Virus record (IMG/VR): IMGVR_UViG_2651869755_000008
Length of the DNA stretch: 15,189 nucleotides
Strand: one strand, 5' to 3'
DNA from: a virus
Taxonomy: Duplodnaviria; Heunggongvirae; Uroviricota; Caudoviricetes
Below the pieces are notes generated by a model. The model did not search any database and was not told the origin of the DNA. It saw only the letters and a program-made list of their open reading frames with translations. Position 1 is the first letter of the stretch; every line of letters begins with the position of its first letter. Shown in pieces: positions 234 to 15,189 of the stretch. Made by a program: the position numbers and the translations under genes.

Positions 234-1214
234 TTATTCAACAAAGCCCACCCTGGGCATGAAAACAAAATGCAGTTTTTGCTTTTCGGTTCTGCCGTAC
301 TCCCGATGATAAAAGGTGATTTCGCTTTTGCGATGATGCCCGGTCAGTTTGTATTGCTCCTTCAGTGCTTCAAGAGCAGGCTGCAGTAGTGTTACTGTCC
401 GGATCCCGGCATTTGTTTTTGGGGGACCGAACATATCAAGTATCGTCAGGTTTCTTCTGACATTCACTATTCCCTTTTCGAGATCCACATCCTCCCACGC
501 CAGAGCTGCCAGTTCCCCGTGACGAAGTCCTGAGTAAACTGCAAATTTCCACATGTTCTGGCTCTGTCCTTTTTCACTTTCCATTAATGCATTGAATTCT
601 GTTTTAGATAACGGATCAGGCTTTATTCTGTTTCGCTGTAATTTTTTTACTCCTTCAAATGGTTTGGTTGATATAAATCCCGACTGATACGCAAAACGTA
701 ACAGCGAACAGAGCAGGGCGATATAGTTATCAACTGTGCGCACGGTTCTTCCTTTTTTGTTGGATCTTGGATTATCCAGGTAAAGCGTTTCTCCATGCAG
801 CAGTTCATTCCGGTAGTTTAAGATATCGCTATAACGAATATGTGATATCAGGGTACTTTCACAAATTATTATTCTGAGTGTTTTTAATTGTGATTTCGTT
901 TTCTTCATTGTGTTTGTTGTTAACTCTGTCTCTTTAATTTTTGTCCAGATATCACAAAGCTCTCCGAACGTTTTTATGACTCTCGTTGTCACCATTTTTG
1001 CCCCAGTGCTGGACTGGGGAAAACGTCTTAAATACTCAAATTCACCGGAGTTTATTTCATGAACTATCAGCGCTCTTAAATTTCCGGCCTTTTTAATATT
1101 ACTGTTTGTAATCTCCCAGCCTTTTAATGTTTCCCGACATCGTTTTCCTCGAAACATGAACCAGATGCGAATGTATCTACCTCTAATCTCGACACCTGTT
1201 GGTAATTTAGACAT
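234..1214 (-). CDS. intR: Phage tyrosine integrase (Rac IntR-like), apparently C-terminally truncated at 326 aa
   Basis: ORF-track protein has an integrase N-terminal arm-binding region and the box I motif VYSGLRHGELAALAWEDVD. The HxxR and catalytic Tyr motifs expected about 60-90 aa further on are absent, and I found them in no minus-strand frame of 1..233. Start ATG at 1214 lies 1 nt after the xis stop. Confidence 0.75.
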   Translation of the reverse strand: MSKLPTGVEIRGRYIRIWFMFRGKRCRETLKGWEITNSNIKKAGNLRALIVHEINSGEFEYLRRFPQSSTGAKMVTTRVIKTFGELCDIWTKIKETELTTNTMKKTKSQLKTLRIIICESTLISHIRYSDILNYRNELLHGETLYLDNPRSNKKGRTVRTVDNYIALLCSLLRFAYQSGFISTKPFEGVKKLQRNRIKPDPLSKTEFNALMESEKGQSQNMWKFAVYSGLRHGELAALAWEDVDLEKGIVNVRRNLTILDMFGPPKTNAGIRTVTLLQPALEALKEQYKLTGHHRKSEITFYHREYGRTEKQKLHFVFMPRVGFVE

Positions 1215-1215
1215 A

Positions 1216-1431
1216 TCATGAGTCTTTGATAAACTGATTTATCTTTGGATAGTTGTACCAGATAATCCCTCGTTTGCTGTCTGGCTTACCTAAAGGAGAT
1301 ACTCGTTTGAAGTGGAAGCCCTCCACCCAACAGTTCTGGCGGTATGCTTCAATTTGTCTGGCCCCCAGACCAGTGCGAAGCATCAGGCCGTATTCAACCA
1401 TCCACTCTTCATTAAAGATTACTTGTGCCAT
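1216..1431 (-). CDS. xisR: Excisionase-like small protein (YdaQ/XisR-like), 71 aa
   Basis: Internal ATG at 1431 preceded by GAGGTGA; the ORF-track N-terminus begins with TTG at 1455 and has no SD. Product [15 protein letters not shown]... is 71 aa, matching my recollection of Rac YdaQ. Sits immediately upstream of int in the same orientation. Confidence 0.75.
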
Positions 1432-1530
1432 CGCATCACCTCTGGCAGGCGCCAATGTTAGACTGAAATTGACGCCCGATGTTGATTATTAATAATCAGC
1501 TATGAAGTTTTAATTTGAATACAATGCAAT

Positions 1531-1719
1531 TCACGAGGACTGAAGTTTCTCGCAATTAAAATTTATCAGTTTTACTTTCTGCTCTCTGGAAACGCCTGCT
1601 TCTTTTTTACCTGAGAGCATTTTTTCGCATTCTGATTTCGTTAGTTTAGATTTTGAATATCTTGTCCAGTTAGTAGGAGTGCCACCTTCCTTTTCAATAG
1701 TGGCGGTAATTTTATACAT
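1531..1719 (-). CDS. ydaC: Small prophage protein, YdaC-like (start uncertain)
   Basis: ATG at 1719 preceded by GGAGGTG 5 nt upstream; overlaps the ralR stop by 8 nt. The longer 86-aa ORF-track version would overlap ralR by 80 nt. Position between xis and ralR matches Rac order. Confidence 0.55.
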   Translation of the reverse strand: MYKITATIEKEGGTPTNWTRYSKSKLTKSECEKMLSGKKEAGVSREQKVKLINFNCEKLQSS

Positions 1720-1906
1720 GAACACCTCCGTTATTATTTCCAGTGGTTCGTTTATTCCATCTTTCGAGTGCTTCTTTTTCACTTCCACCATAACCGGTTC
1801 GGGATTCGCATCCGTTACACTTCGCTCGGTAATATCCTGAAATGACTTTCACCGTTACTGATGGACAACCACAAAATGGACATGGTTTAACATTGTCATA
1901 TCTCAT
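1712..1906 (-). CDS. ralR: RalR (Lar) restriction-alleviation protein; toxin of the RalR/RalA type I toxin-antitoxin pair
   Basis: Product MRYDNVKPCPFCGCPSVTVKVISGYYRAKCNGCESRTGYGGSEKEALERWNKRTTGNNNGGVHV (64 aa) with a CxxC...CxxC motif, recognised as Rac RalR. The ORF track extends 13 codons upstream (start 1945); the internal start is chosen to fit the known length. Confidence 0.85.
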   Translation of the reverse strand: MRYDNVKPCPFCGCPSVTVKVISGYYRAKCNGCESRTGYGGSEKEALERWNKRTTGNNNGGVHV

Positions 1907-1962
1907 AATTTTTCTCATAAAAAATATTTCAAGTTGGCGGTGCATTACACCGCCAGGCTGAA

Positions 1963-2772
1963 TTATTCCTCTGAATTATCGATTACACTGTATTCCCCGG
2001 TTAATACAGAGGAATCTGCAGGATCGATTGTCAGTGGTTCCTTTTCATCCATTGATACTGCACGCTGGATCTCAATTGATACGGGCAGATATTTGAACAG
2101 GCGACGAATAGCCGTTTTCTTTGCCATTTCTTCCCAGTGAGTTACCCACGGCCCGTTATTACCAGCTTTACTCAGGCTGCGCACCAGCTCAATCTGTTTG
2201 CGCGTCATAACTTCAAACTGAGTACCTCCGTCTTTCAGTCTTGCGACAGCATAGACGTGGGTAACCGGGGCATCTTCGTTTTCTCCCGGGCGGTGTATTA
2301 ACTTTTCATCAAGGCCAAATTCGAAGCTAAACTCGTCACCTTCACGGACAACACGGGCTGACAGGCTGGCGATTTGACCAGAACGGCGAGCCAGATCAAT
2401 CATGCCGCGATAGCCAATGATTAGCTGAACGTTCTTTTTACCGCTCTTTTCGTTTTTATTACCAAAAGGCAGTAAATATGCATGACCGAGGGCGCTACCT
2501 GGCTCAAGTCCGAGCTGTGAACACTGTACGATCGCACTGACAAAACTCATAGTGTCACAGTTTCCTAACGCCGGAACTTTACGAATTTCTGTGGTGGCGA
2601 TACGGATCATACGTTCAGCCGTCATATGGCGTGGAAGAGCTGCTGCCAGTTGCTCTTTCATTGATGGCTGGTTAATAAAACTAATCACGTCGCTATTTTT
2701 AACTGCTGCTGGTGCACGGTTTCCCTGAGTTTTTTGCAGATCGGCTTTTGCGATTGGTGGTTGCTTAGTCAT
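1963..2772 (-). CDS. recT: RecT single-strand annealing recombinase, 269 aa
   Basis: Product from [21 protein letters not shown]... recognised as RecT. ATG at 2772 preceded by AAGGAA; overlaps the recE stop by 8 nt, the classic recET arrangement. Confidence 0.95.
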
Positions 2773-5365
2773 TTGCATATTCCTTAGCCCAGCGGGGCAG
2801 TGATAATGTCTTAATAGCTGGCCATTCATCGGTATTCAGGCAGTCAGACAGGGTTCGCAGATTGCGGTGATATTCCTGTTGACCTGCCAGTTTTGCTTCT
2901 TCGCCCATCATGAAAATTTCAACCGGATAACGTCCGCATTCAATAGTTGTGCTGGCAACCAGAAAAACGAAAGTTGGCTGCACTCCAAACTGTGCTTCAT
3001 AACCGTCACTGTAGAATGCATCCTGAACGTGATAGCGGTAGTCGTAATAAGCGGTTTTGAATCGTTGAATATCCGCCGTAGTTTTCACGTCCATGATCCA
3101 GTGAAATTCAGGGATAATTTTGTCCGGACGGCACCGACACAAAATTCCTGTTTCAGGATCTTCCCAGTAAATTGATGATTCAGCGTGTCCGGCGCTTTCA
3201 ACAAGCCATTGCCCCAGCGGCAAAGCCATAACGCTTTGATACATGAGTTCAATTTTCCGGCCTTCTTCCGCAGTGATAACCGTTTTTCCTGTGCTTGCGC
3301 ATTCCATCAGAAACGCTTTCTCTTCTTCTTTTCCGGCGTTTGTACGGCGGTTAAATTCAGGTGCTACGATAAAGCGGTTACTGAATTCTTCCGGTTCAAG
3401 TACCCGGCAGTGGAAAGCGGTTCCTAAATCGAGCGTTTTTGTCTTTGTGGTGTCCACGGGGGCATTTTTACGCCACAAATATAGTGCCGGAGTATCAGCA
3501 ATGTCATCGAGCTGAGACTTACTGACACCGGGACCCGCGTGGTAATTCTCATTCGAAATTCCGTAATAAATACCTGGCTCTATGTCTTCTACGATTACGG
3601 GATCTGCGACTTCGCCAGTTTCATCACTGCAATCGCGATGCGGATCGCTGCCAGCATTCTCATTGTGCGGATGTTCAGCGCCTTCCATTTCCTCCGGATC
3701 ATTTTCCTTAGCTTCAACCTGACTCTCTTCATCGAATGTTTCCTGGTATGTTGCGTCGCCCATCACCGCACCACAGTCAGGGCAGTTATCCCCGCCAGTC
3801 TGGCCGCAGGCATTGCAGGCTATTTCCGGTTCCTGTTGCACTACTGGCTCAGGTTGATTCATATCCGGGCTGGTTTTTTCCGTTTCTGGCTGGTTCTGGT
3901 ACACACAATCGCGAGTCTGGATCCCCTTTACCCATTTCGGATCGTTCGGGTCGCTAATTCCGTCAACAAATTCACCACGTGATGCAGCAAGCAATTTATC
4001 GGCATCGACAGGATTTTTTGATGGAATGTTTTTCCGGGCTTCATGGAGTTCTGCCCGCAGTTCCTGATATTTCGCATCAACAGAATTTACCTGTGACTGA
4101 GCATCCAGCGGCTGCGTGTCCTGATGATGTTCAGTTGCGTCCGGTTCCATTGTTTCAGCCTCTCCCTGTTCAACTGCCGTTGTTCCAGATGGTTGCGGTT
4201 TTTCTTCATCATCCTGTTTTCCTTCTTCTGTTACTCGCTGCGGCATCGGGGCAGAGGAGCGACCGCAGGCAATATCCACGATTTCCGGATCAGGGTTGGC
4301 ATGATCGGTTTCAGTCAGTACTTTGTTCAGATATTCAGTGACGTGCGCGGGGATGACCTCGATCCCAATTGGTGCTTCTTTTACGGACGCAACCACGATG
4401 GCGCGGGAATAATCCAGCCCGCCAGGCATGGTGATGAATTTGTCGCGGAAAACAGAAAAGGGCGGTTTATTTTCAGCGATAATTTCCTCAATGCGTTTAG
4501 CGTGTGCCGGATGAAGGTTATAGATGTCCAGATCCATTGAACGGGCCAGTACGCCAGTGGCTACGTCGCGCGCCAGTGACGTCAGATCGTGTACGAAACC
4601 TTCGCCGCGATCGGTGAGGTTTCCGCCGCCAGCATTAGCACCGGAAGCCGTGCGAGTGATGTGTGAAACACGATTACCCTTCATCCACTCTTTTGTCAGC
4701 AGTCCTCGATCGGTGTAGTCAGCGTTCAGGTATGCTTCGAAAAAAGCAGTTATCAGTCCCAGGTTTGAATTACCAGGATTAGGGAAAACTTTGTCAGTGT
4801 CACGAACCAGTTTGTGGAGTTCGCGAATTTCCAGCGGGTCGAGCAGGCTGGTTTTGTGGGAAACAGCCAGAGCAGTAACAGCCGGTAGTTCTTCAGCCCG
4901 AGCAATGTGTAATGCCTGGAGTCCGTCGCGTGAAACGTGCGTTACCGGTTTTTCGCTGCCGTGTTGAGCAAGCCAACGAATGGGCAGTTCCTGGCCAGAA
5001 ATTGGGAGTAGCATATTCTCCTCAATCTCAGTCATGTCTTCGCCGTTGACGTTGGTATTGCCTTGATAGTGAGCGTTGTCTGGTGCTGCTCCCGGTTTTA
5101 GTTCCCATGTCATGGAGTCTTTGCTGAGTTGATAGCGTTCACTCCAGGTAAAATCGATCTCACCTTCAGCGGGCAGGTCATTAACGACAGGAAAATTCGT
5201 GGCAACAGCTTTAAAATAGCTGCTCAGTTTTTTACCTGACTTAACGATCAGGTAGTCCAGAGTGGCACAGGTCGATTCAAAATCGTTGCTTGCCCACAGG
5301 ACGACGTCAGGTTCACCGGATGATTTTTTCGCTTTCCGTAACAGGAAGAGTGGTTTTGTGCTCAT
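2765..5365 (-). CDS. recE: RecE exonuclease VIII, 866 aa
   Basis: The 866-aa ORF with a long acidic low-complexity middle region and a C-terminal nuclease domain is recognised as Rac RecE; the length matches my recollection. Immediately upstream of and overlapping recT. Confidence 0.95.
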
Positions 5366-5466
5366 TGTTTTTTAACCTCAACTCAGATTAAAATTCGTTT
5401 TGTTCAGTGAATGATCTTGCCGGATACACACTGTTCATAGCCTGCGCCATACGCAGGCTATTTCTT

Positions 5467-5742
5467 TCAGATTTCACCTTTTAATTTCATTGCAATTAGA
5501 GTTGCCAGAAATTCGGCTTTTTTTTCTGCGGGCAGATTTTTTCCGATATGCACCAGGCACATTTTTTTGACACCTTCATCAAGTGTTTTTACGTTGCCTG
5601 ATGGACCATCGATATCAACCACAGTGAATGGGGTTTCTTTATTTTCTGTTTTAATTACGTAGCCAATGCGCTTTCCTTCCAGATTCACCTCGTGAACAAT
5701 GTCATCGGTAGTTACAACAGTGGCTTCATAATTGGTAATCAT
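5467..5742 (-). CDS. racC: RacC, 91 aa, function unknown
   Basis: Internal ATG at 5742 preceded by AAGGAG; product MITNYEATVVTTDDIVHEV... recognised as RacC. The ORF track adds 16 upstream codons with no SD. Confidence 0.8.
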   Translation of the reverse strand: MITNYEATVVTTDDIVHEVNLEGKRIGYVIKTENKETPFTVVDIDGPSGNVKTLDEGVKKMCLVHIGKNLPAEKKAEFLATLIAMKLKGEI

Positions 5743-5816
5743 GTTTTTCTCCTTAATTAAGGTTGAGCGAATACCTGCCATTTCTGGCATAAATTCAGTT
5801 TCGAATAGTCAATTAA

Positions 5817-5987
5817 TTAAAGTTCATGTGCCATCTGGTCTTTTTCGGCACAAGCTTCACTGCAATATTTTCTCGGTTCGTCTTTTGATAAAATCCCGTG
5901 CATGAAGTGAAGCATTCTTTCAATAGCTTTGCTTTCTTCAACGTCTTTTTTGCAAAGGTGGTAAGCACATTTTATTTTCTTAGTCAT
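5817..5987 (-). CDS. ydaE: YdaE small Cys-rich (zinc-binding type) protein, 56 aa
   Basis: Hand-translated minus-strand [59 protein letters not shown], below the ORF-track length cutoff. Its ATG overlaps the kilR TGA stop (TGATG), suggesting translational coupling. Confidence 0.75.
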   Translation of the reverse strand: MTKKIKCAYHLCKKDVEESKAIERMLHFMHGILSKDEPRKYCSEACAEKDQMAHEL

Positions 5988-6208
5988 CACCATGACTCCG
6001 CCTTTACAGGTAAACCATCACGACCGAGGAAGACTTTAATCATGCGGTCAGTAATGAATGTTTTTGTGGTCAGGTTACGAATATATAGTTTTCGCTTTTT
6101 AATATTGTTTGCCGAGGCAATATATGTCCGGCCTTCATGAAGAACATAATCGCCAGGAGTCACACACTGACGTGGTATTTCATCAGTTCCGAAGTGATGT
6201 GCAATCAT
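5987..6208 (-). CDS. kilR: KilR, FtsZ-targeting cell division inhibitor, 73 aa
   Basis: Product [38 protein letters not shown]... recognised as Rac KilR. ATG at 6208 has GGAGAT 5 nt upstream; the ORF-track ATG at 6220 has no SD. Confidence 0.85.
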
Positions 6209-6389
6209 AATTATCTCCATTTTTACAAATGAACTTTGTTGATGCGGTGTCTGGTGCCTCCAGGTGACTGCAACCAGTTAACAATTACAGTCGGCTTTCC
6301 CACCCAAACCAATAAGGACTAACATGACTTTTAACTGTGCCACGTGCGCTTAGCCGCATTCACCGCATCACAAAATTCACTTTAAAAAG

Positions 6390-6431
6390 GGCGGACATCA
6401 GCCGAACTTCAAGAAAAAAACTGATGCCGCC
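6390..6431 (-). terminator. Intrinsic-terminator-like hairpin on the minus strand, upstream of kilR
   Basis: Minus-strand RNA would read GGCGGCAUCAG - 19-nt loop - CUGAUGUCCGCC followed by CUUUUUAAA: an 11-bp stem with one bulge, then a U5 tract. The plus-strand version has no U tract. The loop is longer than in typical terminators. Confidence 0.4.
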
Positions 6432-6649
6432 AGGACTACACACAGCAATGTCGTTATTTACAACCGGAGGCGCACTCCCACCATTTAAATTTAACAGACA
6501 AGACCGACTCTTTATGGATATCGGAAATGCGCCTTCGTGTTGTGCCCGGTTTTATTTCACCACCTCCGGGCTTCGGTGGTCTCGGCTATACCCCTACAGC
6601 GAGAGCTTGTGTTAACATTTCAATACCCTTACAGTTGAGAGTTATTGAT

Positions 6650-7138
6650 ATGTTGGATGTATTTACTCCATTGTTGAAACTTTTTGCTAACGAGCCACTC
6701 GAAAGACTTATGTATACGATTATCATTTTTGGTCTCACTCTCTGGCTGATACCGAAAGAGTTTACTGTCGCATTCAATGCTTATACTGAAATACCTTGGC
6801 TCTTTCAGATTATCGTTTTTGCCTTTTCTTTCGTGGTCGCCATTTCCTTCTCAAGATTGCGAGCACATATTCAAAAGCATTATTCATTACTACCAGAGCA
6901 ACGAGTATTGCTTCGTTTATCTGAGAAAGAAATCGCTGTATTTAAAGATTTCCTTAAAACAGGAAATCTTATTATCACTTCTCCTTGCCGTAACCCGGTT
7001 ATGAAAAAATTAGAACGGAAGGGCATCATTCAACATCAGAGTGATAGCGCAAACTGTTCTTATTATCTCGTCACCGAAAAATACTCCCATTTTATGAAAT
7101 TATTCTGGAACAGCAGGAGTAGACGTTTTAATCGTTAG
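6650..7138 (+). CDS. sieB: SieB superinfection exclusion protein, 162 aa, membrane
   Basis: Internal ATG at 6650; product MLDVFTPLLKLFANEPLERLMYTIIIFGLTLWLIPKEF... has two hydrophobic segments and is recognised as Rac SieB. The 203-aa ORF-track version begins at an upstream start inside the untranslated region. Confidence 0.85.
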   Translation: MLDVFTPLLKLFANEPLERLMYTIIIFGLTLWLIPKEFTVAFNAYTEIPWLFQIIVFAFSFVVAISFSRLRAHIQKHYSLLPEQRVLLRLSEKEIAVFKDFLKTGNLIITSPCRNPVMKKLERKGIIQHQSDSANCSYYLVTEKYSHFMKLFWNSRSRRFNR

Positions 7139-7290
7139 CTTACTGTGTGCTTCTCCAACCATCGGCGCGCACCAGTTTCGGTTTTAAATGTTTTGCTTTT
7201 GGTATACGTCATGGCAGTGAACGTTCCATCCTGGTTGGGGAACACGCCGCACACCAGGGATTCGTTGTTGCCGAGGTCGATTTTTTGCAT
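7135..7290 (-). CDS. ydaF: YdaF small protein, 51 aa
   Basis: Hand-translated MQKIDLGNNESLVCGVFPNQDGTFTAMTYTKSKTFKTETGARRWLEKHTVS*. Length and position (between sieB and racR, minus strand) match Rac ydaF. Its 3' end overlaps the sieB stop by 4 nt, convergently. Confidence 0.7.
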   Translation of the reverse strand: MQKIDLGNNESLVCGVFPNQDGTFTAMTYTKSKTFKTETGARRWLEKHTVS

Positions 7291-7313
7291 TTTGCGAATC
7301 TCACATCTTGTTG

Positions 7314-7436
7314 CTACGTATAGCGACTTCTGCCTGCCAGAGATCCTAGTCGTTGCTGCGTAAAGCCTGCACAGCCTGGTTGTAAGTGATACCGCAACAA
7401 TCCATCAAATACTGAACTACTTCGTAATGCACCATC
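7314..7436 (-). CDS. ydaG: YdaG-like small protein, 40 aa
   Basis: Hand-translated MVALRSSSVFDGLLRYHLQPGCAGFTQQRLGSLAGRSRYT* with a strong SD (AAGGGGAG) 5-6 nt upstream. Position matches Rac ydaG, but the length (40 versus a recalled 44 aa) and identity are not verified. Confidence 0.45.
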   Translation of the reverse strand, partial: DGALRSSSVFDGLLRYHLQPGCAGFTQQRLGSLAGRSRYT

Positions 7437-7603
7437 TTATCTCTCCCCTTAACGCCGGGTGGCGGAACTAACTGCTGCACTGCAAAATTTGAATCCCGCC
7501 GTCATGTTCATACGCCTCGGGCTGGCTACTTAACCCCTGACCACTGCCTGGTAACTCGAAGTATTGCCCGGCGTTCTGTGGGGCGGGGTGGGTTGGTAGG
7601 TAT

Positions 7604-7648
7604 ATAATGTACTTTATGTTCATCATTGTAAAGTACTTTAAGTACATT
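7604..7648 (-). promoter_or_regulatory. Candidate leftward promoter flanked by ATGTACTT-type palindromic motifs
   Basis: On the minus strand, TTTACA (plus 7627..7632), a 17-nt spacer, then CATTAT (plus 7604..7609). The site is overlapped by ATGTACTT (7607..7614), the palindrome AAGTACTT (7633..7640) and AAGTACAT (7641..7648). Called by eye only. Confidence 0.3.
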
Positions 7649-7722
7649 TTATGTATAAAAAAATGAGACGGGATAAAGTGAAGCACAAACCCGGAGGGGG
7701 ACGCTACCGGATTTATGCTGGT

Positions 7723-8142
7723 TTAAGAGGCTTTTTGTTTTTTCTTTCGTGCTAACTCTTCGTAAATTGCATTGTACTTCTGTTTTTTCTCCTCAAGAGT
7801 TTTTAAAAGTTCATCTGTCTCACTGTCAGGGAGCTCGTCCAGAAGGTCAATGATGATTTTTTGTCTTGGATTTAACTCCTGATAGAAACGTATCTGTCCA
7901 CTTTCTTCTGTATCCTCTCCCAAAAGATAGGTTGGTGTTGTTCCAATGAGTGTTGCTAATTCCCTTAATTTCTCTCGGCGAGGAATTGTTTCACCATTAA
8001 ACCATTTGCTAACCGCTTTTGGTGTTAATTTCATTCGACGGGCAATTTCTGCCTGCCTTCCATGTTGTTCATAACCAGCGTTTTCACAGGCTAGCGCAAG
8101 CCTACTGGCGAACTCTTTACGCGCTTTATCTTCATGAACCAT
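7723..8142 (-). CDS. racR: RacR-like prophage repressor with an XRE-family HTH, 139 aa
   Basis: N-terminal HTH-like segment (QAEIARRMKLTPKAVSKWFNGETIPRREKLRELATLIG), no LexA-like peptidase domain, divergent from ydaS-ydaT as in Rac. No in-frame ATG upstream before a stop. Confidence 0.8.
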   Translation of the reverse strand: MVHEDKARKEFASRLALACENAGYEQHGRQAEIARRMKLTPKAVSKWFNGETIPRREKLRELATLIGTTPTYLLGEDTEESGQIRFYQELNPRQKIIIDLLDELPDSETDELLKTLEEKKQKYNAIYEELARKKKQKAS

Positions 8143-8221
8143 AAGTTCAATGATATTCGCTCTTGAATGTACTGTCAGTTCTGTTATAGCATGTACTCAA
8201 AGTTCACATTGTGAGGATGAT
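8143..8221. promoter_or_regulatory. Divergent racR / ydaS promoter-operator region
   Basis: 79-bp intergenic region with repeated motifs: AAGTTCA at 8143..8149 and 8200..8206, ATGTACT at 8167..8173 and 8191..8197. The placement mirrors a lambda OR-type switch region. Confidence 0.55.
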
Positions 8222-8476
8222 ATGAACCAGAAAACACTTGAAGATGTAATCAAAACTGTTCGCGTTTCTGTTGTGGCCGACGTTTGTGGTGTCAGCCAAA
8301 GAGCAATCTACAAATGGATGGATAACGGAAAATTGCCTCGCACAGAATATACCGGCGAAACAAATTACGCTGAAAAAATCGCTCATGCATCAAACGGATT
8401 ATTTTCTGCCGATGCAATTTTAACTATTGGCAGAAATAAAACTACTACGAAAAAGCTGATGGGAGTTGATTCATGA
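8222..8476 (+). CDS. ydaS: YdaS-like Cro/HTH protein, 84 aa
   Basis: ATG at 8222 with GAGG 6 nt upstream; HTH-like VADVCGVSQRAIYKWMDNGKLP. Its stop overlaps the ydaT start (ATGA). The ORF-track N-terminal 24 codons have no SD. Confidence 0.75.
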   Translation: MNQKTLEDVIKTVRVSVVADVCGVSQRAIYKWMDNGKLPRTEYTGETNYAEKIAHASNGLFSADAILTIGRNKTTTKKLMGVDS

Positions 8477-8895
8477 AAATCAAGCATGAGCACATCGAAT
8501 CAGTGTTGTTAGCCCTGGCAGCCGAAAAAGGGCAGGCGTGGGTCGCTAACGCAATTACTGAAGAATATCTGCGCCAGGGGGGCGGCGAATTGCCCCTGGT
8601 ACCAGGCAAGGACTGGAACAATCAGCAGAATATCTATCATCGTTGGTTGAAAGGTGAAACGAATGCGCAAAGGGAAAAAATTCAGAAACTGATCCCTGCG
8701 GTTCTGGCAATTCTTCCTCGCGAGCTGCGTCACCGACTCTGCATCTTCGATACCCTGGAACGCCGTGCATTACTGGCGGCACAGGATGCACTGAGTACGG
8801 CAATTGATGCGCATGATGATGCAGTCCAGGCCGTTTACCGTAAAGCACATTTCAGCGGCGGCGGTTCTCCTGGCGATTCTGTCGTAGTGCATTGA
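8473..8895 (+). CDS. ydaT: YdaT, 140 aa, co-transcribed partner of YdaS
   Basis: The 140-aa product MKIKHEHIESVLLALAAEKGQAWVANAITEEYLRQ... matches my recollection of Rac YdaT in length and position; translationally coupled to ydaS. Confidence 0.8.
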   Translation: MKIKHEHIESVLLALAAEKGQAWVANAITEEYLRQGGGELPLVPGKDWNNQQNIYHRWLKGETNAQREKIQKLIPAVLAILPRELRHRLCIFDTLERRALLAAQDALSTAIDAHDDAVQAVYRKAHFSGGGSPGDSVVVH

Positions 8896-8939
8896 TTGAA
8901 ATTAATCGTACCGAACTGTTTTGTTCGGTATCAGTTAAA

Positions 8940-8960
8940 TGTAACGCTGCGAGCGTTACA
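8940..8960. repeat. Palindromic iteron-like site TGTAACGCT-gcg-AGCGTTACA
   Basis: Perfect 9-bp inverted repeat with a 3-bp spacer, 13 bp upstream of the ydaU start. Confidence 0.6.
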
Positions 8961-8972
8961 AGGTGAAAACAA

Positions 8973-9761
8973 ATGGCTTCAAACTGGATAAAGCTCGAAG
9001 TTATTACGCCGGATAAGCCGGAAATATTCAGGCTTGCTGAGATTCTGAATATTGATCCAGATGCCGCATTAGGGAAAGTCATTCGCTTCTGGGCATGGGC
9101 GGATCAACAAATGATAGACGGTAACGCAGAGTGTAACGCTCGCGGCGTTACAAAAAGTGCAATAGATCGCATCACTTTTATGGCTGGTTTTGCTGATGCG
9201 TTAATTCAGGTTGGATGGCTGGTCGAAACTAATGGTGTGTTGTCGCTTCCTAACTTTGAGCGCCATAACGGGAAAAGCTCTAAAAAACGGGCGGTTACAA
9301 ACGAGAGAGTAACAAAAATACGAGAACTGAAACGAAAAGGTAACGCTGCCAGCGTTACAAAAACGGATCAAAAAGCGTTACCAGAGGAAGAGAAAGAGGA
9401 AGATATAAATACTTATCTCCCCCTAAATCCCCCTCGCCAAAAACGAGCGTCTAAAAAATTCGAACCGGAGGCTATCGAGCTGCCTGACTGGTTGCCGGAA
9501 ACACTCTGGCATGAGTGGGTTCAGTTCAGGCAGGCATTGCGAAAACCGATTCGAACGGAGCAGGGCGCTAACGGGGCGATACGGGAGCTGGAAAAATTCC
9601 GCCAGCAGGGTTTTTCACCTGAGCAGGTGATTCGACACAGCATCGCCAATGAATACCAGGGCTTGTTCGCGCCAAAAGGTGTTCGACCTGAGACGTTACT
9701 CCGACAGGTTAACACCGTCTCGTTACCGGATAGTGCGATCCCGCCAGGCTTCAGGGGGTAA
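8973..9761 (+). CDS. ydaU: YdaU-like replication initiation protein (lambda O analogue), 262 aa
   Basis: Sits directly upstream of the DnaC-like gene in the lambda O/P arrangement; AAGGTGA SD. Contains palindromic repeats inside the coding region. Family assignment is from memory of Rac YdaU. Confidence 0.75.
   Translation: MASNWIKLEVITPDKPEIFRLAEILNIDPDAALGKVIRFWAWADQQMIDGNAECNARGVTKSAIDRITFMAGFADALIQVGWLVETNGVLSLPNFERHNGKSSKKRAVTNERVTKIRELKRKGNAASVTKTDQKALPEEEKEEDINTYLPLNPPRQKRASKKFEPEAIELPDWLPETLWHEWVQFRQALRKPIRTEQGANGAIRELEKFRQQGFSPEQVIRHSIANEYQGLFAPKGVRPETLLRQVNTVSLPDSAIPPGFRG
9132..9152. repeat. Palindromic iteron-like site TGTAACGCT-cgc-GGCGTTACA, inside ydaU
   Basis: Near-perfect copy of the 8940 palindrome; a GGTAACGC half-site lies at 9120..9127. 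Confidence 0.6.
9339..9359. repeat. Palindromic iteron-like site GGTAACGCT-gcc-AGCGTTACA, inside ydaU
   Basis: Third copy. Further half-site-like GTTACA / GTAACA at 9293..9316. Confidence 0.6.
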
Positions 9762-9767
9762 CTGACC

Positions 9768-10514
9768 ATGAAAAATATTGCGGCAGGCGGCATTCTTGAA
9801 CGTATCCGCAGACTGGCCCCGCCACATGTAACCGCCCCATTCAAAACGGTAGCGGAGTGGCGCGAGTGGCAACTTTCCGAAGGCCAGAAACGTTGTGAGG
9901 AGATCAACCGTCAGAATCGTCAGTTGCGGGTGGAAAAAATTCTGAATCGCTCTGGCATCCAGCCATTGCACCGCAAATGCTCGTTTGCGAATTACCGGGT
10001 GCAGAACGACGGTCAGCGATACGCGTTGAACCAGGCGAAATCTATCGCTGATGAACTGATGACCGGGTGTACAAATTTTGCGTTCAGCGGAAAACCTGGT
10101 ACCGGAAAAAACCATCTGGCGGCGGCTATCGGGAATCGCCTGCTGAAAGATGGCCAGACAGTGATTGTGGTTACCGTGGCTGATGTCATGAGTGCTCTAC
10201 ACGCCAGCTATGACGACGGGCAATCAGGCGAAAAATTTTTGCGGGAACTGTGCCAAGTGGATCTGCTGGTTCTTGATGAAATTGGCATTCAGCGCGAGAC
10301 AAAAAACGAGCAGGTGGTGCTGCACCAGATTGTTGATCGCCGGACAGCGTCGATGCGCAGCGTGGGGATGCTGACAAACCTGAACTATGAGGCGATGAAA
10401 ACATTGCTCGGCGAGCGGATTATGGATCGCATGACCATGAACGGCGGACGCTGGGTGAATTTTAACTGGGAGAGCTGGCGTCCGAATGTCGTCCTGCCAG
10501 GAATTGCGAAGTGA
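9768..10514 (+). CDS. ydaV: DnaC-like helicase loader / replication protein (YdaV), 248 aa
   Basis: Walker [12 protein letters not shown] and Walker B LLVLDEIG in an AAA+ DnaC/IstB-like context; directly follows ydaU. Confidence 0.85.
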
Positions 10515-10536
10515 TTTTTACCGGGAGGAAATTTTA

Positions 10537-11298
10537 ATGGAGACTGTTTTTGACGCACTGAAAGCAATGGGAAAAGCCACGTCGGTAGAACTGGCTGCGC
10601 GACTTGATATCAGTCGTGAAGAGGTACTGAACGAGCTGTGGGAACTGAAAAAGGCTGGTTTCGTTGATAAAAGCGTATACATCTGGCGTGTGGCTGATAA
10701 CAACGTTCAGCAGGAACAGCCAGAGCAGGCAGAACTGCCGGAAGAAACCACCACGGCAACAGTCGCAAAAATTTCGGAGTGCGATTTAACTGCGACGATT
10801 GAACAACGTGGCCCACAAACGGCGGATGAACTGGCTACGTTTTTCGGCATCACATCACGCAAAGTGGCTTCAACGCTGGCAATGGCAATCAGTAAAGGTC
10901 GTCTGATTCGCGTTAATCAGAACGGTAAATTTCGTTACTGCATGCCGGGCGATAATTTACCAGCAGAGCCGAAAGCTGCATCGGTAGCGGAAACTGATGG
11001 TAAAGCCTTTCCTCAGCCAGCCGGTGTTGCGTTACCAGCACAGGAAGCGGCAACACAGGAAGAAATTAAAACAGATACTATGGGGGACATTGTGCAGTCA
11101 CTACCATCGTTCACTGAAACGCGAGCCAATGACCTGATTTTACCATCGCTGCATATGGCAAACCGCGAACTGCGCCGGGCGAAAAGTCATGTCCAGAAGT
11201 GGGAGCGAGTCTGCGCCGCGCTGCGTGAGTTGAACAAGCACAGGGATATTGTACGACAGATTACTGATTCTTCCCGCCATGTTGCATCGGAAAAGTGA
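10537..11298 (+). CDS. Prophage protein with two winged-helix-like repeats (DUF977/YdaW-like), 253 aa
   Basis: ATG at 10537 with GGGAGG 8 nt upstream. Two similar HTH-like segments ([28 protein letters not shown] and [32 protein letters not shown]). Family name is a recollection, not verified. Confidence 0.55.
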
Positions 11299-11313
11299 TT
11301 GCCGGAGGCACCT

Positions 11314-11643
11314 ATGGCAAAAGTATTTACACCAGAAGAGCGGGAAAAAATTAAAGGGCAGGTTGTTGAACTTGTACGTCTGAGCGGTCGCGAGACGTTA
11401 CGGGCTCTGGAGGCTAAAACCGGTGCATCAAGGTATTACATAAGCACTCTTGCCAGAGAACTGGTCGCCAGTGGTGATGTTTACAATTCTGGCTACGGAT
11501 TATTCCCGTTTGAGCAGGCGCGTAAAGACTGGCAAAACGCCCGCAAAAAACTATCAAGGGCAAAGATGAAGAAACCGGTTGTGGTAGATCCAAACCTAAT
11601 CTGGTCATTACCTGATGGAGAAATCCGTCGCCTTAGTCTTTGA
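11314..11643 (+). CDS. Hypothetical small prophage protein, 109 aa
   Basis: ATG at 11314 with GGAGG 5 nt upstream; normal GC and codon usage; last gene before the AT-rich island. No recognisable family. Confidence 0.5.
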   Translation: MAKVFTPEEREKIKGQVVELVRLSGRETLRALEAKTGASRYYISTLARELVASGDVYNSGYGLFPFEQARKDWQNARKKLSRAKMKKPVVVDPNLIWSLPDGEIRRLSL

Positions 11644-11678
11644 TACTATGTTTATAATGTTGAAAAAGAGTCTAATAG

Positions 11679-11708
11679 TTGACATTGTATGAAATATGAT
11701 TGTTATAT
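11679..11708 (+). promoter_or_regulatory. Candidate sigma-70 promoter for the island gene
   Basis: TTGACA at 11679..11684, 18-bp spacer, TTATAT at 11703..11708, about 40 bp upstream of the 11745 start. By eye only. Confidence 0.3.
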
Positions 11709-11744
11709 AAAATGATTTTTTTGGAGACTGTTTAAGGTAAACAA

Positions 11745-12548
11745 ATGAAACCAGAATACTTAAGGAAAATAGAATCATTGCAACGTGAGGTTGATGATTT
11801 CCATCCAGTGCTAAGAGCGCTTCTACCACGTTTGCCGACTGTTACACATGTTGAATATAAGCAAGGACCATCAGAAAAAGGTGCTGATTTTGTCATAATT
11901 AAACGAGATGAGGCATTAGATGAGGAAATATATATTGGGGTTATTTGTAAGGTTGGAAAGATAATTCAGTCAAATAGTGAGGTCGAACGACAAATAGAAG
12001 AGTGTCAATTATACCCACGCTTTATTTCTTCTGGCTCTAAGAACATACATTTGAATGAAATTTGGGTTGTTACTAATTCATCAATCTCAAATAATGCTCA
12101 AGAAAAAATCTACTTAAAATTCAAATCTACAAATATAAAGTTTATAGAAGGTGAGAAAATATGTTCTTTAATCAGTAAATATTACCCAGAGTTTTGGGAT
12201 TTCGAATCCATTAATTATGAGCAATACTTAACAGATACATTGCAAACCATAAGTGATACTCCTGAAAGTTCTTTTTTTGGTAGTGTTGGCATAAATAACC
12301 TTATTGATAGATATGTAAGCAAGGAAGATCATAAAAAACGCAGGCACAGGCCGTTAAAACTGTATAGTGTTGTGAGAGCCGAGAGATTTATTTTTTTAGA
12401 GGGAACTGTTGGCTCCGGGAAAAGTACTTTGCTGAAACAGCTAATTAAAAAAATAAAAGAAGAATATTCTTACGAAAAAGACTACATCCTTCCAGTATTT
12501 TGCCAATACAAGGATGTTCTAGAAAAAAACTCAATATTGAAAATATAA
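11745..12548 (+). CDS. N-terminal part of a frameshifted Mrr-like nuclease / NACHT NTPase gene (Mrr-like domain plus Walker A)
   Basis: AAGGT SD. N-terminal ~150 aa resemble the Mrr-cat restriction-endonuclease fold (VLRALLPRL...KGADFVII...SEVERQIEEC...NEIWVVTNSSISNNAQEKIY...NIKFIEGEKICSLI). Walker A GTVGSGKST lies near the C-terminus. The frame ends 6 codons after an A7 run. Confidence 0.75.
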   Translation: MKPEYLRKIESLQREVDDFHPVLRALLPRLPTVTHVEYKQGPSEKGADFVIIKRDEALDEEIYIGVICKVGKIIQSNSEVERQIEECQLYPRFISSGSKNIHLNEIWVVTNSSISNNAQEKIYLKFKSTNIKFIEGEKICSLISKYYPEFWDFESINYEQYLTDTLQTISDTPESSFFGSVGINNLIDRYVSKEDHKKRRHRPLKLYSVVRAERFIFLEGTVGSGKSTLLKQLIKKIKEEYSYEKDYILPVFCQYKDVLEKNSILKI

Positions 12549-14002
12549 TACAAAGTGTATTAAGTAAGTACAAAATACAACATGATGGGAATATTTTATT
12601 AATTGTTGATTCGGTGGATGAAGTAAAGGAATCACTTGAGGAAAGGCAAAACAACTTCAGGGACATTGTAGAGAAAGTATCCAGGAGTGATAAAGTTCGA
12701 TTACTAGTTGCTTCAAGAATTATGGACTCTCTTCAGGACTATGAAGTTATCGATCAGATGTTTGCAAGATACTCGATAATACCACTTAGCACAGGTCAAA
12801 TAATCGACTTTGTAGATAAAATCTGCAATGACATTAAAATAACAAACAAGCTTAAGAATGGTATAGAAAAAACACCACTATTTAAATTCATTCCCAGGAC
12901 TCCAGTGAGTGCTATTCTTCTAGCAAGAATACTCTCTGATGAGATTAAAGAATTACCATCTACAATGACAGAACTATACTCAAAATACAGTGAGATAGTA
13001 TTGGGACGATGGGATACATCTAAGGGATTATTATCGCAAACAGAATATGATGTAATAAGTAATATATTAGTAGAAATTGCGATGTTTATGATGGATAACT
13101 CTCTAAACTGCATATCAATTTCTGAAGTGCAGGACATGTTTTTAAATTATTTGGCCAAAAGAAACTTGAATGTTGATGAGGACAAACTTTTCAAAAGACT
13201 AATTTATCGCAGTGAAGTAACAACAGTTAATGTTAGAACTAATACGTTCTCATTTCTACACAGATCATTCATGGAGTATTTTTACGCTGAAGGACTTAGG
13301 AAGCGTGGCTTAATAGACATAAATGATAATATTTATGATATTTATTGGGCAAATAGTTATTTCTTCTATTTTGGTTTATTAAGAGACAATGAATATCTTA
13401 TTGATAAAATTAATGAACTTAAACCTAGTAACGATAAAACAAGATTTTTAAGGTTATTTTATAACGGTTCTTTTTATTTGGCTTCATATCTAACTCCGTA
13501 TAAAAAAATAGCAAGGGGAGTCCTTTTATCATATATAGATGCAGGTAAATTATATGTTGATATTCTCCATGGAAATACCGACATCCCGCTGAAGGAGTTT
13601 TCACCAGTAGCTCTTCTTTGTATTTTTACAAAGTGTTTAAGTAACAATTACGCATATGATTTTTTCAAATCTGCCTTGGAAGACTTGTCAGTTCAAATTG
13701 AACAATATGAGGAAATTGGGGAACATATTGATTATGCACGTTTCTTCATAGCATCAACACTGAATGAGCTCGGGGATAAATCCGCATTTGATAGCTTAGT
13801 GGAAAAAAATAAATTAGGTGTTTTGATTAATTTAGGGATAACTCACGTTACAGACGACTCAGGGCTACTAAGTACTACGGTTGATAAGTACCTGAAAAAA
13901 TTCAATAAAAAAGTACGAAGTAACCATGATATGTCTAATTATATATCTAAGTTATATGAGGAATCTACTGGTTCCTTACGTACAAACCTACAAATTCAAT
14001 AA
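12500..14002 (+). CDS. C-terminal part of the same gene (NACHT Walker B to C-terminal helical domain); frame differs from 11745..12548
   Basis: NACHT-type Walker B LLIVDSVDE, sensor-1-like RLLVASR, TPLF / PRTPVSAILLARIL, and FSFLHRSFMEYFYAEG matching the conserved NACHT motif seen in NLRs. The only start before these motifs is the TTG at 12500 with no SD, so independent translation is unlikely. Confidence 0.75.
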   Translation: MPIQGCSRKKLNIENIIQSVLSKYKIQHDGNILLIVDSVDEVKESLEERQNNFRDIVEKVSRSDKVRLLVASRIMDSLQDYEVIDQMFARYSIIPLSTGQIIDFVDKICNDIKITNKLKNGIEKTPLFKFIPRTPVSAILLARILSDEIKELPSTMTELYSKYSEIVLGRWDTSKGLLSQTEYDVISNILVEIAMFMMDNSLNCISISEVQDMFLNYLAKRNLNVDEDKLFKRLIYRSEVTTVNVRTNTFSFLHRSFMEYFYAEGLRKRGLIDINDNIYDIYWANSYFFYFGLLRDNEYLIDKINELKPSNDKTRFLRLFYNGSFYLASYLTPYKKIARGVLLSYIDAGKLYVDILHGNTDIPLKEFSPVALLCIFTKCLSNNYAYDFFKSALEDLSVQIEQYEEIGEHIDYARFFIASTLNELGDKSAFDSLVEKNKLGVLINLGITHVTDDSGLLSTTVDKYLKKFNKKVRSNHDMSNYISKLYEESTGSLRTNLQIQ

Positions 14003-14013
14003 TAAATAGATTG

Positions 14014-14048
14014 TCACATTGAAGGTAACGTATCGACCTTCAATGTGA
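14014..14048 (+). terminator. Rho-independent terminator-like hairpin after the NACHT gene
   Basis: Perfect 13-bp inverted repeat TCACATTGAAGGT / ACCTTCAATGTGA with a 9-nt loop, followed by TTATTATCCTCTT; 12 bp after the stop. Confidence 0.5.
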
Positions 14049-14941
14049 TTATTATCCTCTTAATAATATAGCCTAGGCTACTTTCGACTTTCTGAGGCAC
14101 AGAGATTGCAGAATGTATCAATCATAGTGAAGCTATCGTAAATGTCCGCACGTTTCTACAGATAGTCAGATTTGAGTGAACTGCCTCCGCAAAATGCTGG
14201 TTGGGGCCTGACTTAATACATCTGAAGAAGTGTTGGTTATGTTTGGCTGTTATGAATCAGATAATTGATATGTTGATTAGAGGAGAAGATAGAATCAACA
14301 TGGTTGTTTTTCGTATAACTATTTGTTTTACTTTTAGTTTATGCATTCTGTGTGTTAGGAGTAAGTTATTAAAGTTTAACCAAAAAATCTTGATGTCGTC
14401 CACATAGATTACTGTTACTGAACCTTATTGTGTGCATTAGTTGTGTTTTGAAATTTCAATTTAATTATTTATGATGTGTATTTTTAACGATAAATGTTTT
14501 CTGGGTAAAAGACAGTGGGGGATGAGATAGGCAATATATCATTAATCTTGATTATCTCCAGGATGCCTTTACTGTTCATATAAATAAATCACATGCGCAT
14601 CAAGTAATGTAAAGGCATCCTTTTAGTTATATCTTATTAAATGTTAATGCTTTGAGTGGAAAACATGATTCCAGCAATTATCATATGGCTACTTTATAAA
14701 AATAATGCCCATATAAAACAACAAGTGAAAAGGATTACGGATAAAAAAGGAGCGAGATGTGCAAAGTTGTTATTTTCCATGTTTAACCACCTTAAACAAT
14801 TGATGATGACGGGATGATTGCATCTGCAATGCTTTTATTGAAATGTTATGATAAAAAAGAACTTTTTCATAACATTAAAATGCAATTTATCTAATCGTTT
14901 TTAATAATAAGTGTGGTATTTCTATCCTTGTACCAGCTATT

Positions 14942-15189
14942 TAGACTGGCCCCCTGAATCACCAGACAACCAATATCACTTATTTAAGTGATAGTCTTAA
15001 TACTAGTTTTTAGGCTAGTCATTGGAGAGCAGATGATTGATGTCTTAGGACCGGAGAAACGCAGACGGCGTACCACACAGGAAAAGATCGCAATTGTTCA
15101 GCAGAGCTTTGAACCAGGGATGACGGTCTCCCTCGTTGCCCGGCAACATGGTGTAGCAGCCAGCCAGTTATTTCTCTGGCGTAAGCAAT
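14942..15189 (+). mobile_element. Left end of an IS2-like insertion sequence (IS3 family), continuing past the window edge
   Basis: TAGACTGGCCCCCTGAATC...CCAGACAACCAATATCACTTA matches my memory of the IS2 left terminal inverted repeat, followed about 90 bp later by the insC start. Confidence 0.8.
15033..15189 (+). CDS. insC: IS2 OrfA (InsC) transposase N-terminal HTH part, partial (52 codons to window edge)
   Basis: Hand-translated [52 protein letters not shown], recognised as the IS2 InsC N-terminus. Confidence 0.8.

Follow-up and report, generated by a model that had tools for sequence, protein, structure and literature searches.

Is the AT-rich gene carried by a Rac-type prophage record a new kind of antiphage defence protein, or a known one, and does this copy still work? 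We studied a stretch of 15,189 nucleotides from the virus record IMGVR_UViG_2651869755_000008 (hereafter "the window"). At positions 11745-14002, a first-pass annotation made from the sequence alone had placed a Mrr-like nuclease fused to a NACHT nucleoside triphosphatase (NTPase), and it had proposed that this was a single-protein defence system and possibly an uncharacterised variant. We conclude with high confidence that the gene is bNACHT25 itself, present as a natural frameshift allele in which a run of eight adenines (A8) has become a run of seven (A7), that it is cargo of a Rac prophage, and that this copy is most likely non-functional.

Identity of the gene

The gene runs from an ATG at 11745 to a TAA at 14000-14002, exactly as first placed, and encodes a Mrr-like nuclease, a NACHT NTPase, and a helical C-terminal (NCH1) domain. 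If one A is added in the A7 run, the conceptual translation (the repaired protein) has 752 amino acids and no internal stop. (The first-pass annotation spoke of a repaired protein of 750 amino acids, which implies that the frameshift had been noticed.) The repaired protein matches WP_001702659.1 at 752 of 752 residues, as found by comparing the translation with the coding sequence annotated in NZ_CP091756 (strain LC-1302-2020). WP_001702659.1 is bNACHT25 (Conte et al., PLoS Biol 2025; PMC12169576), and its source is E. coli ECOR11 (Kibby et al., "Bacterial NLR-related proteins protect against phage", bioRxiv 2022, 10.1101/2022.07.19.500537). Judged by its sequence, then, the protein is already known: the same protein, and not an uncharacterised relative, has been published and tested in the laboratory. 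The bNACHT25 gene of LC-1302-2020 has the same nuclease-NACHT-NCH1 architecture, the same D48, H506, and S508, and the same position in Rac; the window allele is one A shorter.

The features of the repaired protein are as follows.

11808..12173, + strand: Mrr_cat-like (PD-(D/E)xK) nuclease region, aa 22-143 (Pfam PF04471, near the cutoff)
12402..12428, + strand: Walker A, GTVGSGKST, aa 220-228 (read from the sequence)
12596..12622, + strand: Walker B, LLIVDSVDE, aa 285-293 (contains the NACHT-specific D[GAS]hDE signature)
12698..12718, + strand: RLLVASR, aa 319-325, at the position of the sensor-1 Arg motif (read from the sequence)
13247..13294, + strand: winged-helix motif FSFLHRSFMEYFYAEG, aa 502-517 (contains H506 and S508)
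13469..13966, + strand: NCH1, the presumed sensor region, aa 576-741 (Pfam PF22728)

All four of the motifs that had been quoted for this gene (GTVGSGKST, LLIVDSVDE, RLLVASR, and the winged-helix motif) are present in the repaired protein. We take RLLVASR to be the sensor-1 Arg motif by its likeness to the general NACHT "TSR" motif. GTVGSGKST fits the Walker A pattern GxxxxGK[ST], and DSVDE (aa 289-293) fits D[GAS]hDE, which, according to the legend of Fig S1 of the preprint by Kibby and colleagues, separates NACHT from other STAND NTPases. The published residue numbers also fit the sequence: D48 lies in GADFVI (the codon for this Asp of the published nuclease active site is at 11886-11888), and both H506, which is the conserved winged-helix histidine, and S508 lie in FSFLHRSF. 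Because of the exact identity, the NACHT signature motifs, and the NCH1 domain, we place the gene as bNACHT25, in clade 6 of the bacterial NACHT (bNACHT) proteins.

Searches with Pfam profiles, which the first-pass annotation had suggested as a check, gave a similar picture. (In the window, the frameshift leaves fragments of 267 and 500 amino acids, which were searched as well.) NCH1 matched the repaired protein with 132 bits (E = 2e-38, aa 576-741) and the 500-aa fragment with 133 bits. NACHT scored 37.2 bits on the repaired protein (aa 214-353), above its cutoff of 26.7, and fell below the cutoff on the separate fragments (24 bits for the 267-aa fragment and 12 bits for the other one). For Mrr_cat, the scores were 17 bits (repaired protein) and 20.3 bits (267-aa fragment), just under the cutoff of 21, over profile positions 12-115 of 115. 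The proposed order of Mrr-like nuclease, NACHT, and helical C terminus therefore holds by identity to bNACHT25 and by Pfam for NACHT and NCH1, with Mrr_cat narrowly short. Defence-system annotation, also suggested, named no specific family: a scan of the repaired protein with PADLOC-DB v2 returned generic weak P-loop matches (HerA, VakA, mad8, and TRIP13) and no Avs model. Similarly, a scan of the repaired protein with NCBIfam found no specific family, and the anti-phage models DS8 and EruA were far below threshold. Both libraries thus leave bNACHT25 unrecognised. Nor did the PDB, when searched by sequence, contain a relative at E <= 0.01.

Much is known about the intact protein. bNACHT25 and bNACHT32 are clade 6 proteins with an N-terminal PD-(D/E)xK DNase, a central NACHT, and a C-terminal NCH1 (PMC12169576). 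Intact bNACHT25 protects against T2, T4, and MS2-like RNA phages. Cellular DNA is degraded upon infection by MS2 or with the MS2 coat protein alone, and the D48A substitution abolishes both defence and DNA degradation (PMC12169576). The coat protein shows no binding to bNACHT25, and the host chaperone DnaJ and its interaction with DnaK are needed for defence against MS2, T2, and T4; the authors propose guard-like, indirect sensing. H506L and S508P, at the equivalents of H443 and S445 of NLRC4, cause toxicity that is independent of any stimulus (the protein is hyperactive) and that is rescued by D48A. T5 orf015 counteracts the signalling of hyperactive bNACHT25. In the related bNACHT01, the Walker A lysine is essential for defence (Kibby et al. 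preprint).

In the published mechanism of the intact protein, the central NACHT NTPase restrains it in an off state, with H506 and S508 of the winged helix stabilising the inactive form, and the role of sensor is given to the C-terminal NCH1 region. The protein is activated when T2 or T4 infects or when the MS2 coat protein is produced, indirectly and in a manner that depends on DnaJ and DnaK. The N-terminal DNase effector then degrades cellular DNA, and growth stops. The proposal of a single-protein, prophage-borne anti-phage system is correct for the published intact allele and probably does not hold for the window copy, which is frameshifted.

The other tested clade 6 protein, bNACHT32 (WP_057688292), is a different protein, reported to be 81% identical to bNACHT25, with the same architecture, sensitivity to D48A, and activation by the MS2 coat protein (this comparison uses the published description only). 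Animal NLRs such as NLRC4 have in common with bNACHT25 the NACHT module and the conserved His and Ser of the winged helix, and mutations equivalent to those at H443 and S445 of NLRC4 hyperactivate bNACHT25. Unlike them, bNACHT25 has no leucine-rich repeats, and its effector is a DNase instead of a CARD or pyrin adaptor.

The shortened adenine run

Intact alleles carry A8 at the frameshift site (codons E260, K261, and K262). This run, at gene positions 779-786, is the longest homopolymer of the gene. In the window, the loss of one A gives the following arrangement.

12523..12529, + strand: A7 homopolymer, the frameshift site (from alignment with three other E. coli genomes)
11745..12548, + strand: first open reading frame, 267 aa, with the nuclease domain, linker, and Walker A part of NACHT; the last five residues (SILKI) are out of frame
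12500..14002, + strand: second open reading frame, 500 aa from a TTG start, with Walker B, sensor 1, the winged-helix His, and NCH1

No single reading frame of the window therefore encodes the nuclease, NACHT, and NCH1 together. The split is at codon 262, which lies between Walker A (220-228) and Walker B (285-293), and because the NTPase is divided between these two motifs, the window copy is probably not working. The need for the Walker A lysine in bNACHT01 supports the idea that splitting the NTPase inactivates the protein. The 267-aa product would be a nuclease domain and a P-loop without its switch. The second reading frame has no convincing translation start of its own, and gene callers differ over where it begins (the TTG at 12500, the equivalent of 12614, or an internal ATG that gives 365 aa). 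The simplest reading is loss of function, and this copy is most likely inactive.

Several points weigh against this account. First, our own searches support the nuclease fold weakly, and for its assignment we rely on the effect published for D48A. When the 267-aa fragment was modelled with AlphaFold2 from its single sequence, the mean predicted local distance difference test (pLDDT) score was 36, which made the model unusable. Second, the published experiments cover the intact allele, so the inactivity of the A7 allele, most likely as it is, is a prediction. Third, the frame downstream of the deletion is undamaged, with 0-3 single-nucleotide polymorphisms (SNPs) in 11 A7 carriers. This could mean that function has been retained; an undamaged frame is equally expected if the mutation is recent or recurrent.

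Fourth, some full-length protein may be made by slippage on a heptamer. The zero frame of the A7 allele reads GA_A AAA AAC, so that A_AAA_AAC, an in-phase heptamer of the form X_XXZ_ZZN, lies at 12524-12530. A -1 slip on it leads into the 500-aa frame and yields the full-length protein with the change K262N. A_AAA_AAC is identical to the heptamer of IS1 insAB' frameshifting and is the proven -1 frameshift site of IS1, for which no stimulator is known (PMC4066793). E. coli heptamers that lack a stimulator shift at only 2-10 times a background of 0.055%, and we found no stimulatory structure after the A run: the fold of 12523-12640 has -14.6 kcal/mol (z = -0.7), and 43 of 200 shuffled sequences were as stable. 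We estimate that full-length K262N, whether from -1 slippage or from transcriptional slippage, would account for at most about 1% of translation or less.

Recurrence of the deletion and other readings

The exact 267-aa product is encoded on 195 contigs (NCBI, ENA, and Logan assemblies) and is found in 407 index blocks of an assembly collection. The A7 carriers include draft assemblies and complete genomes, come from at least three Rac backgrounds with two immunity regions, and occur with or without IS2. In a gap-free alignment of 13.4 kb, a GenBank chromosome (L009 in our numbering of loci) differs from the window by a single mismatch. Because an identical error would not recur at such a scale, the frameshift is a real and common allele and not a sequencing error.

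The gene occurs in two allelic lineages that are 50 substitutions apart (97.8% DNA identity). The counts for each are given below.

Lineage 1: intact protein on 567 contigs, A7 product on 195 contigs
Lineage 2: intact protein on 117 contigs, A7 product on 38 contigs

In each lineage, A7 makes up about 25% of the contigs, which are not independent samples, so that these figures are only indicative. Lineage 2 (WP_033801850.1, for example in CFSAN061771) encodes 752 amino acids and has the same position in Rac, the A8 tract, and A7 variants of its own; it differs in having hokD downstream in place of the segment at 14252-14942 of the window. We found no experimental test of the lineage 2 protein. 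Around the A7 tract of lineage 2, SNPs specific to that lineage lie 20 nt before the tract and 3 and 7 nt after it, which indicates that the tract arose independently and not by recombination. Within lineage 1, A7 and A8 are each present on both of two haplotypes, and both are also found alongside the IS2 insertion.

When 5,426 complete E. coli genomes were searched with megablast, 18 had the gene, in each case on the chromosome and annotated as "NACHT domain-containing protein". In these RefSeq genomes, 12 copies appear to be intact (for 10 of the 12, this is judged from match length and annotation only) and six are disrupted. Two of the six have A7, one has an additional T in a T7 run (L003, gene position 647-653), one has an additional A in another A7 run (L015, gene position 1759-1765), one is cut by an IS3 element, and one is half deleted next to IS1. 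(The last two kinds of damage, in which IS3 truncates the 5' end or the 5' half is missing beside IS1, were seen at L017 and L018.) The A7 carrier L007 also has an IS1 insertion, with a 9-bp duplication, at gene position 1287-1295. The pattern is consistent with a mutational hot spot at which this gene, which encodes a protein that degrades host DNA, has been inactivated repeatedly.

Could the tract instead be a switch? The A8/A7 tract might be a hypermutable contingency site at which a costly DNase defence is reversibly turned off or tuned down, with slippage providing a low level of full-length K262N. We consider this unlikely, though it fares best among the alternatives. It would explain why A7 arose independently in the two lineages and accounts for a similar share of the contigs in each, and why both tract lengths are found on both lineage 1 haplotypes and with IS2. 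The heptamer has the correct phase and is the motif proven in IS1, and the downstream frame is intact in 11 of the 12 A7 carriers that we examined, including the window. There is also a parallel in phase-variable restriction-modification and other contingency loci, where a homopolymer within the coding sequence of a defence gene likewise undergoes recurrent changes in length. Unlike those loci, bNACHT25 has a tract of only 8 nt, which is short for classical phase variation, and we draw this likeness as an analogy and not as a claim of membership. Furthermore, heptamers that are not stimulated shift at low rates, re-pairing from AAC to AAA is disfavoured in bacteria, the downstream region lacks a structure (z = -0.7), and the contigs do not represent independent samples. 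The same data are explained, with no adaptive switching, by a costly or neutral gene being lost repeatedly through its longest homopolymer. If the switch were real, it would be a phase-variable immune gene of the STAND/NLR type, toggled on and off by E. coli populations; we know of no described example, though we did not search the literature for one.

Another reading is that A7 is a homopolymer error of sequencing or assembly and that the true genome carries a functional bNACHT25. Indels in homopolymers are the commonest error in long reads, and the single-base insertions in the T7 and A7 runs of two other complete genomes (L003 and L015) are of this type. Also, the assembly of one A7 carrier, LD67-1, is plainly noisy: 4.5 kb of it contain 148 gap openings. 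Given the number of contigs and index blocks with the same 267-aa product, and its presence in three Rac backgrounds and in complete genomes, we consider this explanation very improbable.

It is less probable still that the two reading frames are a split two-protein system in which a nuclease/P-loop fragment and a Walker B/NCH1 fragment reassemble. Apart from the frameshift, both frames are undamaged, as such a system would need. Against it, the second frame lacks a convincing start or ribosome-binding site and is called differently by different gene callers, and the frameshift breaks the core of the NTPase itself, separating Walker A from Walker B.

Lastly, the layout of an N-terminal nuclease, a STAND NTPase, and a C-terminal sensor resembles that of nuclease-bearing Avs (AVAST) proteins, as is generally known, and the first-pass annotation had referred to Avs-type nuclease-STAND fusions. 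Avs systems and bNACHT25 have in common the tripartite effector-STAND-sensor layout, the nuclease effector, and an outcome like abortive infection. They differ in that bNACHT25 has a NACHT-type NTPase and senses indirectly and with DnaJ, not by direct binding of terminase or portal. We rejected an assignment to an uncharacterised Avs variant, whose probability we put close to nil, because it is refuted by 100% identity to a named and tested bNACHT protein; the D[GAS]hDE motif, the Pfam matches to NACHT and NCH1, and the lack of any match to a PADLOC v2 Avs model also speak against it. "Avs-type" was therefore imprecise, and the gene is better described as a clade 6 bNACHT.

The Rac prophage around the gene

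Over 14.9 kb, positions 249-15189 of the window differ by a single mismatch and a single gap from the Rac prophage of LC-1302-2020 (99.99% identity). There, the order of genes is intR, xisR, ralR, recT, recE, racC, ydaE, kilR, sieB, ydaF, repressor/cro-like genes, ydaT, replication genes including ydaV, DUF1627, a truncated DUF977 gene, the NACHT gene, an IS2-like element, DUF1367, DUF1364, and DUF1133. The GC content is 0.29-0.37 from about 11500 to 15000 (32% for the NACHT gene itself), as compared to 0.49-0.55 for the replication-module genes at 9500-11250. This drop, together with the IS2-like end at 14943, confirms the earlier description of an AT-rich gene between the replication module and an IS2 element. 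Other features of the island are as follows.

11299..11643, + strand: truncated DUF977 gene, at the left edge of the AT-rich island (Pfam DUF977, E = 3e-14, profile positions 1-99 of 134)
14013..14049, + strand: perfect 14-bp hairpin, then UUAUUAU, 11 nt past the stop codon
14943..15189, + strand: left end of an IS2-like element, in the AT-rich spacer downstream of the gene and running off the window

The truncated DUF977 gene is at the position of ydaW in the Rac prophage of K-12, and in L001, L002, and L003, RefSeq calls it "incomplete; missing C-terminus". The gene is truncated at the left boundary of the island in every locus that we examined, and because of this, we suggest that the NACHT cargo entered Rac through a single ancestral event, either an insertion or a replacement.

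The hairpin is a probable transcription terminator: the RNA fold of 14000-14075 has -20.3 kcal/mol (z = -5.0), and none of 200 shuffled sequences was as stable. A scan for consensus terminators missed it because its T-tract is weak. A promoter scan of 11550-14300 found 17 sites, as compared to 13.3 +/- 4.1 expected, and scored none in the spacer upstream of the gene (11644-11744). By eye, TTGACA at 11679-11684, with TA-rich -10 candidates 18-19 nt downstream, is a candidate promoter.

The first 247 nt of the IS2-like end are 95-97% identical to copies annotated as "IS3-like element IS2 family" and 100% identical to the copy at the same site in LC-1302-2020, a genome in which 14 places match the element. 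The element is at the same site in L001 (at about 16245-17580), L003, L009, and L012 and is absent from L004-L006, L008, L010, and L014. Between the hairpin and this element, 14252-14942 is an AT-rich segment of about 700 bp that has no similarity to the matching region of the lineage 2 loci (where hokD is found). Two small open reading frames, at 14201-14407 (68 aa) and 14656-14817 (53 aa), had no match in Pfam. In an Rfam scan of the window, the only match was the RalA antitoxin small RNA of the ralR/ralA type I toxin-antitoxin pair (1535-1713; RF02694, 225 bits), and no family was found in or downstream of the NACHT gene.

At the other end, positions 1-248 of the window are the end of an IS903B element (IS5 family), 100% identical to annotated copies, that abuts the Rac integrase gene. 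Because intR is truncated (the open reading frame at 234-1214 gives 326 aa instead of 411), this copy of Rac probably cannot excise. Comparing window positions 7600-9500 with L004, L005, and L008 revealed two immunity and early-replication modules among the Rac copies that carry the gene: one has a 139-aa helix-turn-helix repressor and a 262-aa protein, and the other has a 158-aa repressor, a P22_Cro-like gene, and YdaU. That two types of module accompany the gene indicates mosaic recombination around it. A tblastn search with the intact protein against 50,697 deposited phage genomes found no match; in these sequence collections, the gene is seen only in Rac-type prophage and not in isolated phages. 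Our literature search found no paper that combines the Rac prophage with NACHT.

The finding itself matters little, since published work already covers the protein, how it acts against phages, its nuclease effector, and much of the activation pathway, and the window adds a disrupted copy. It does show where bNACHT25 is housed: the Rac prophage has a defined, AT-rich slot for cargo beside the truncated DUF977 gene, and bNACHT25 occupies it. A small and testable lead is the frameshift that recurs in the homopolymer. If phage resistance is to be inferred from the presence of the gene (for example, with defence-annotation tools), then the length of the A tract needs to be checked. More broadly, about a quarter of the sequenced copies in each lineage have the same deletion, which suggests that natural E. 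coli repeatedly lose, or switch, an immune gene that is potentially toxic to the cell itself.

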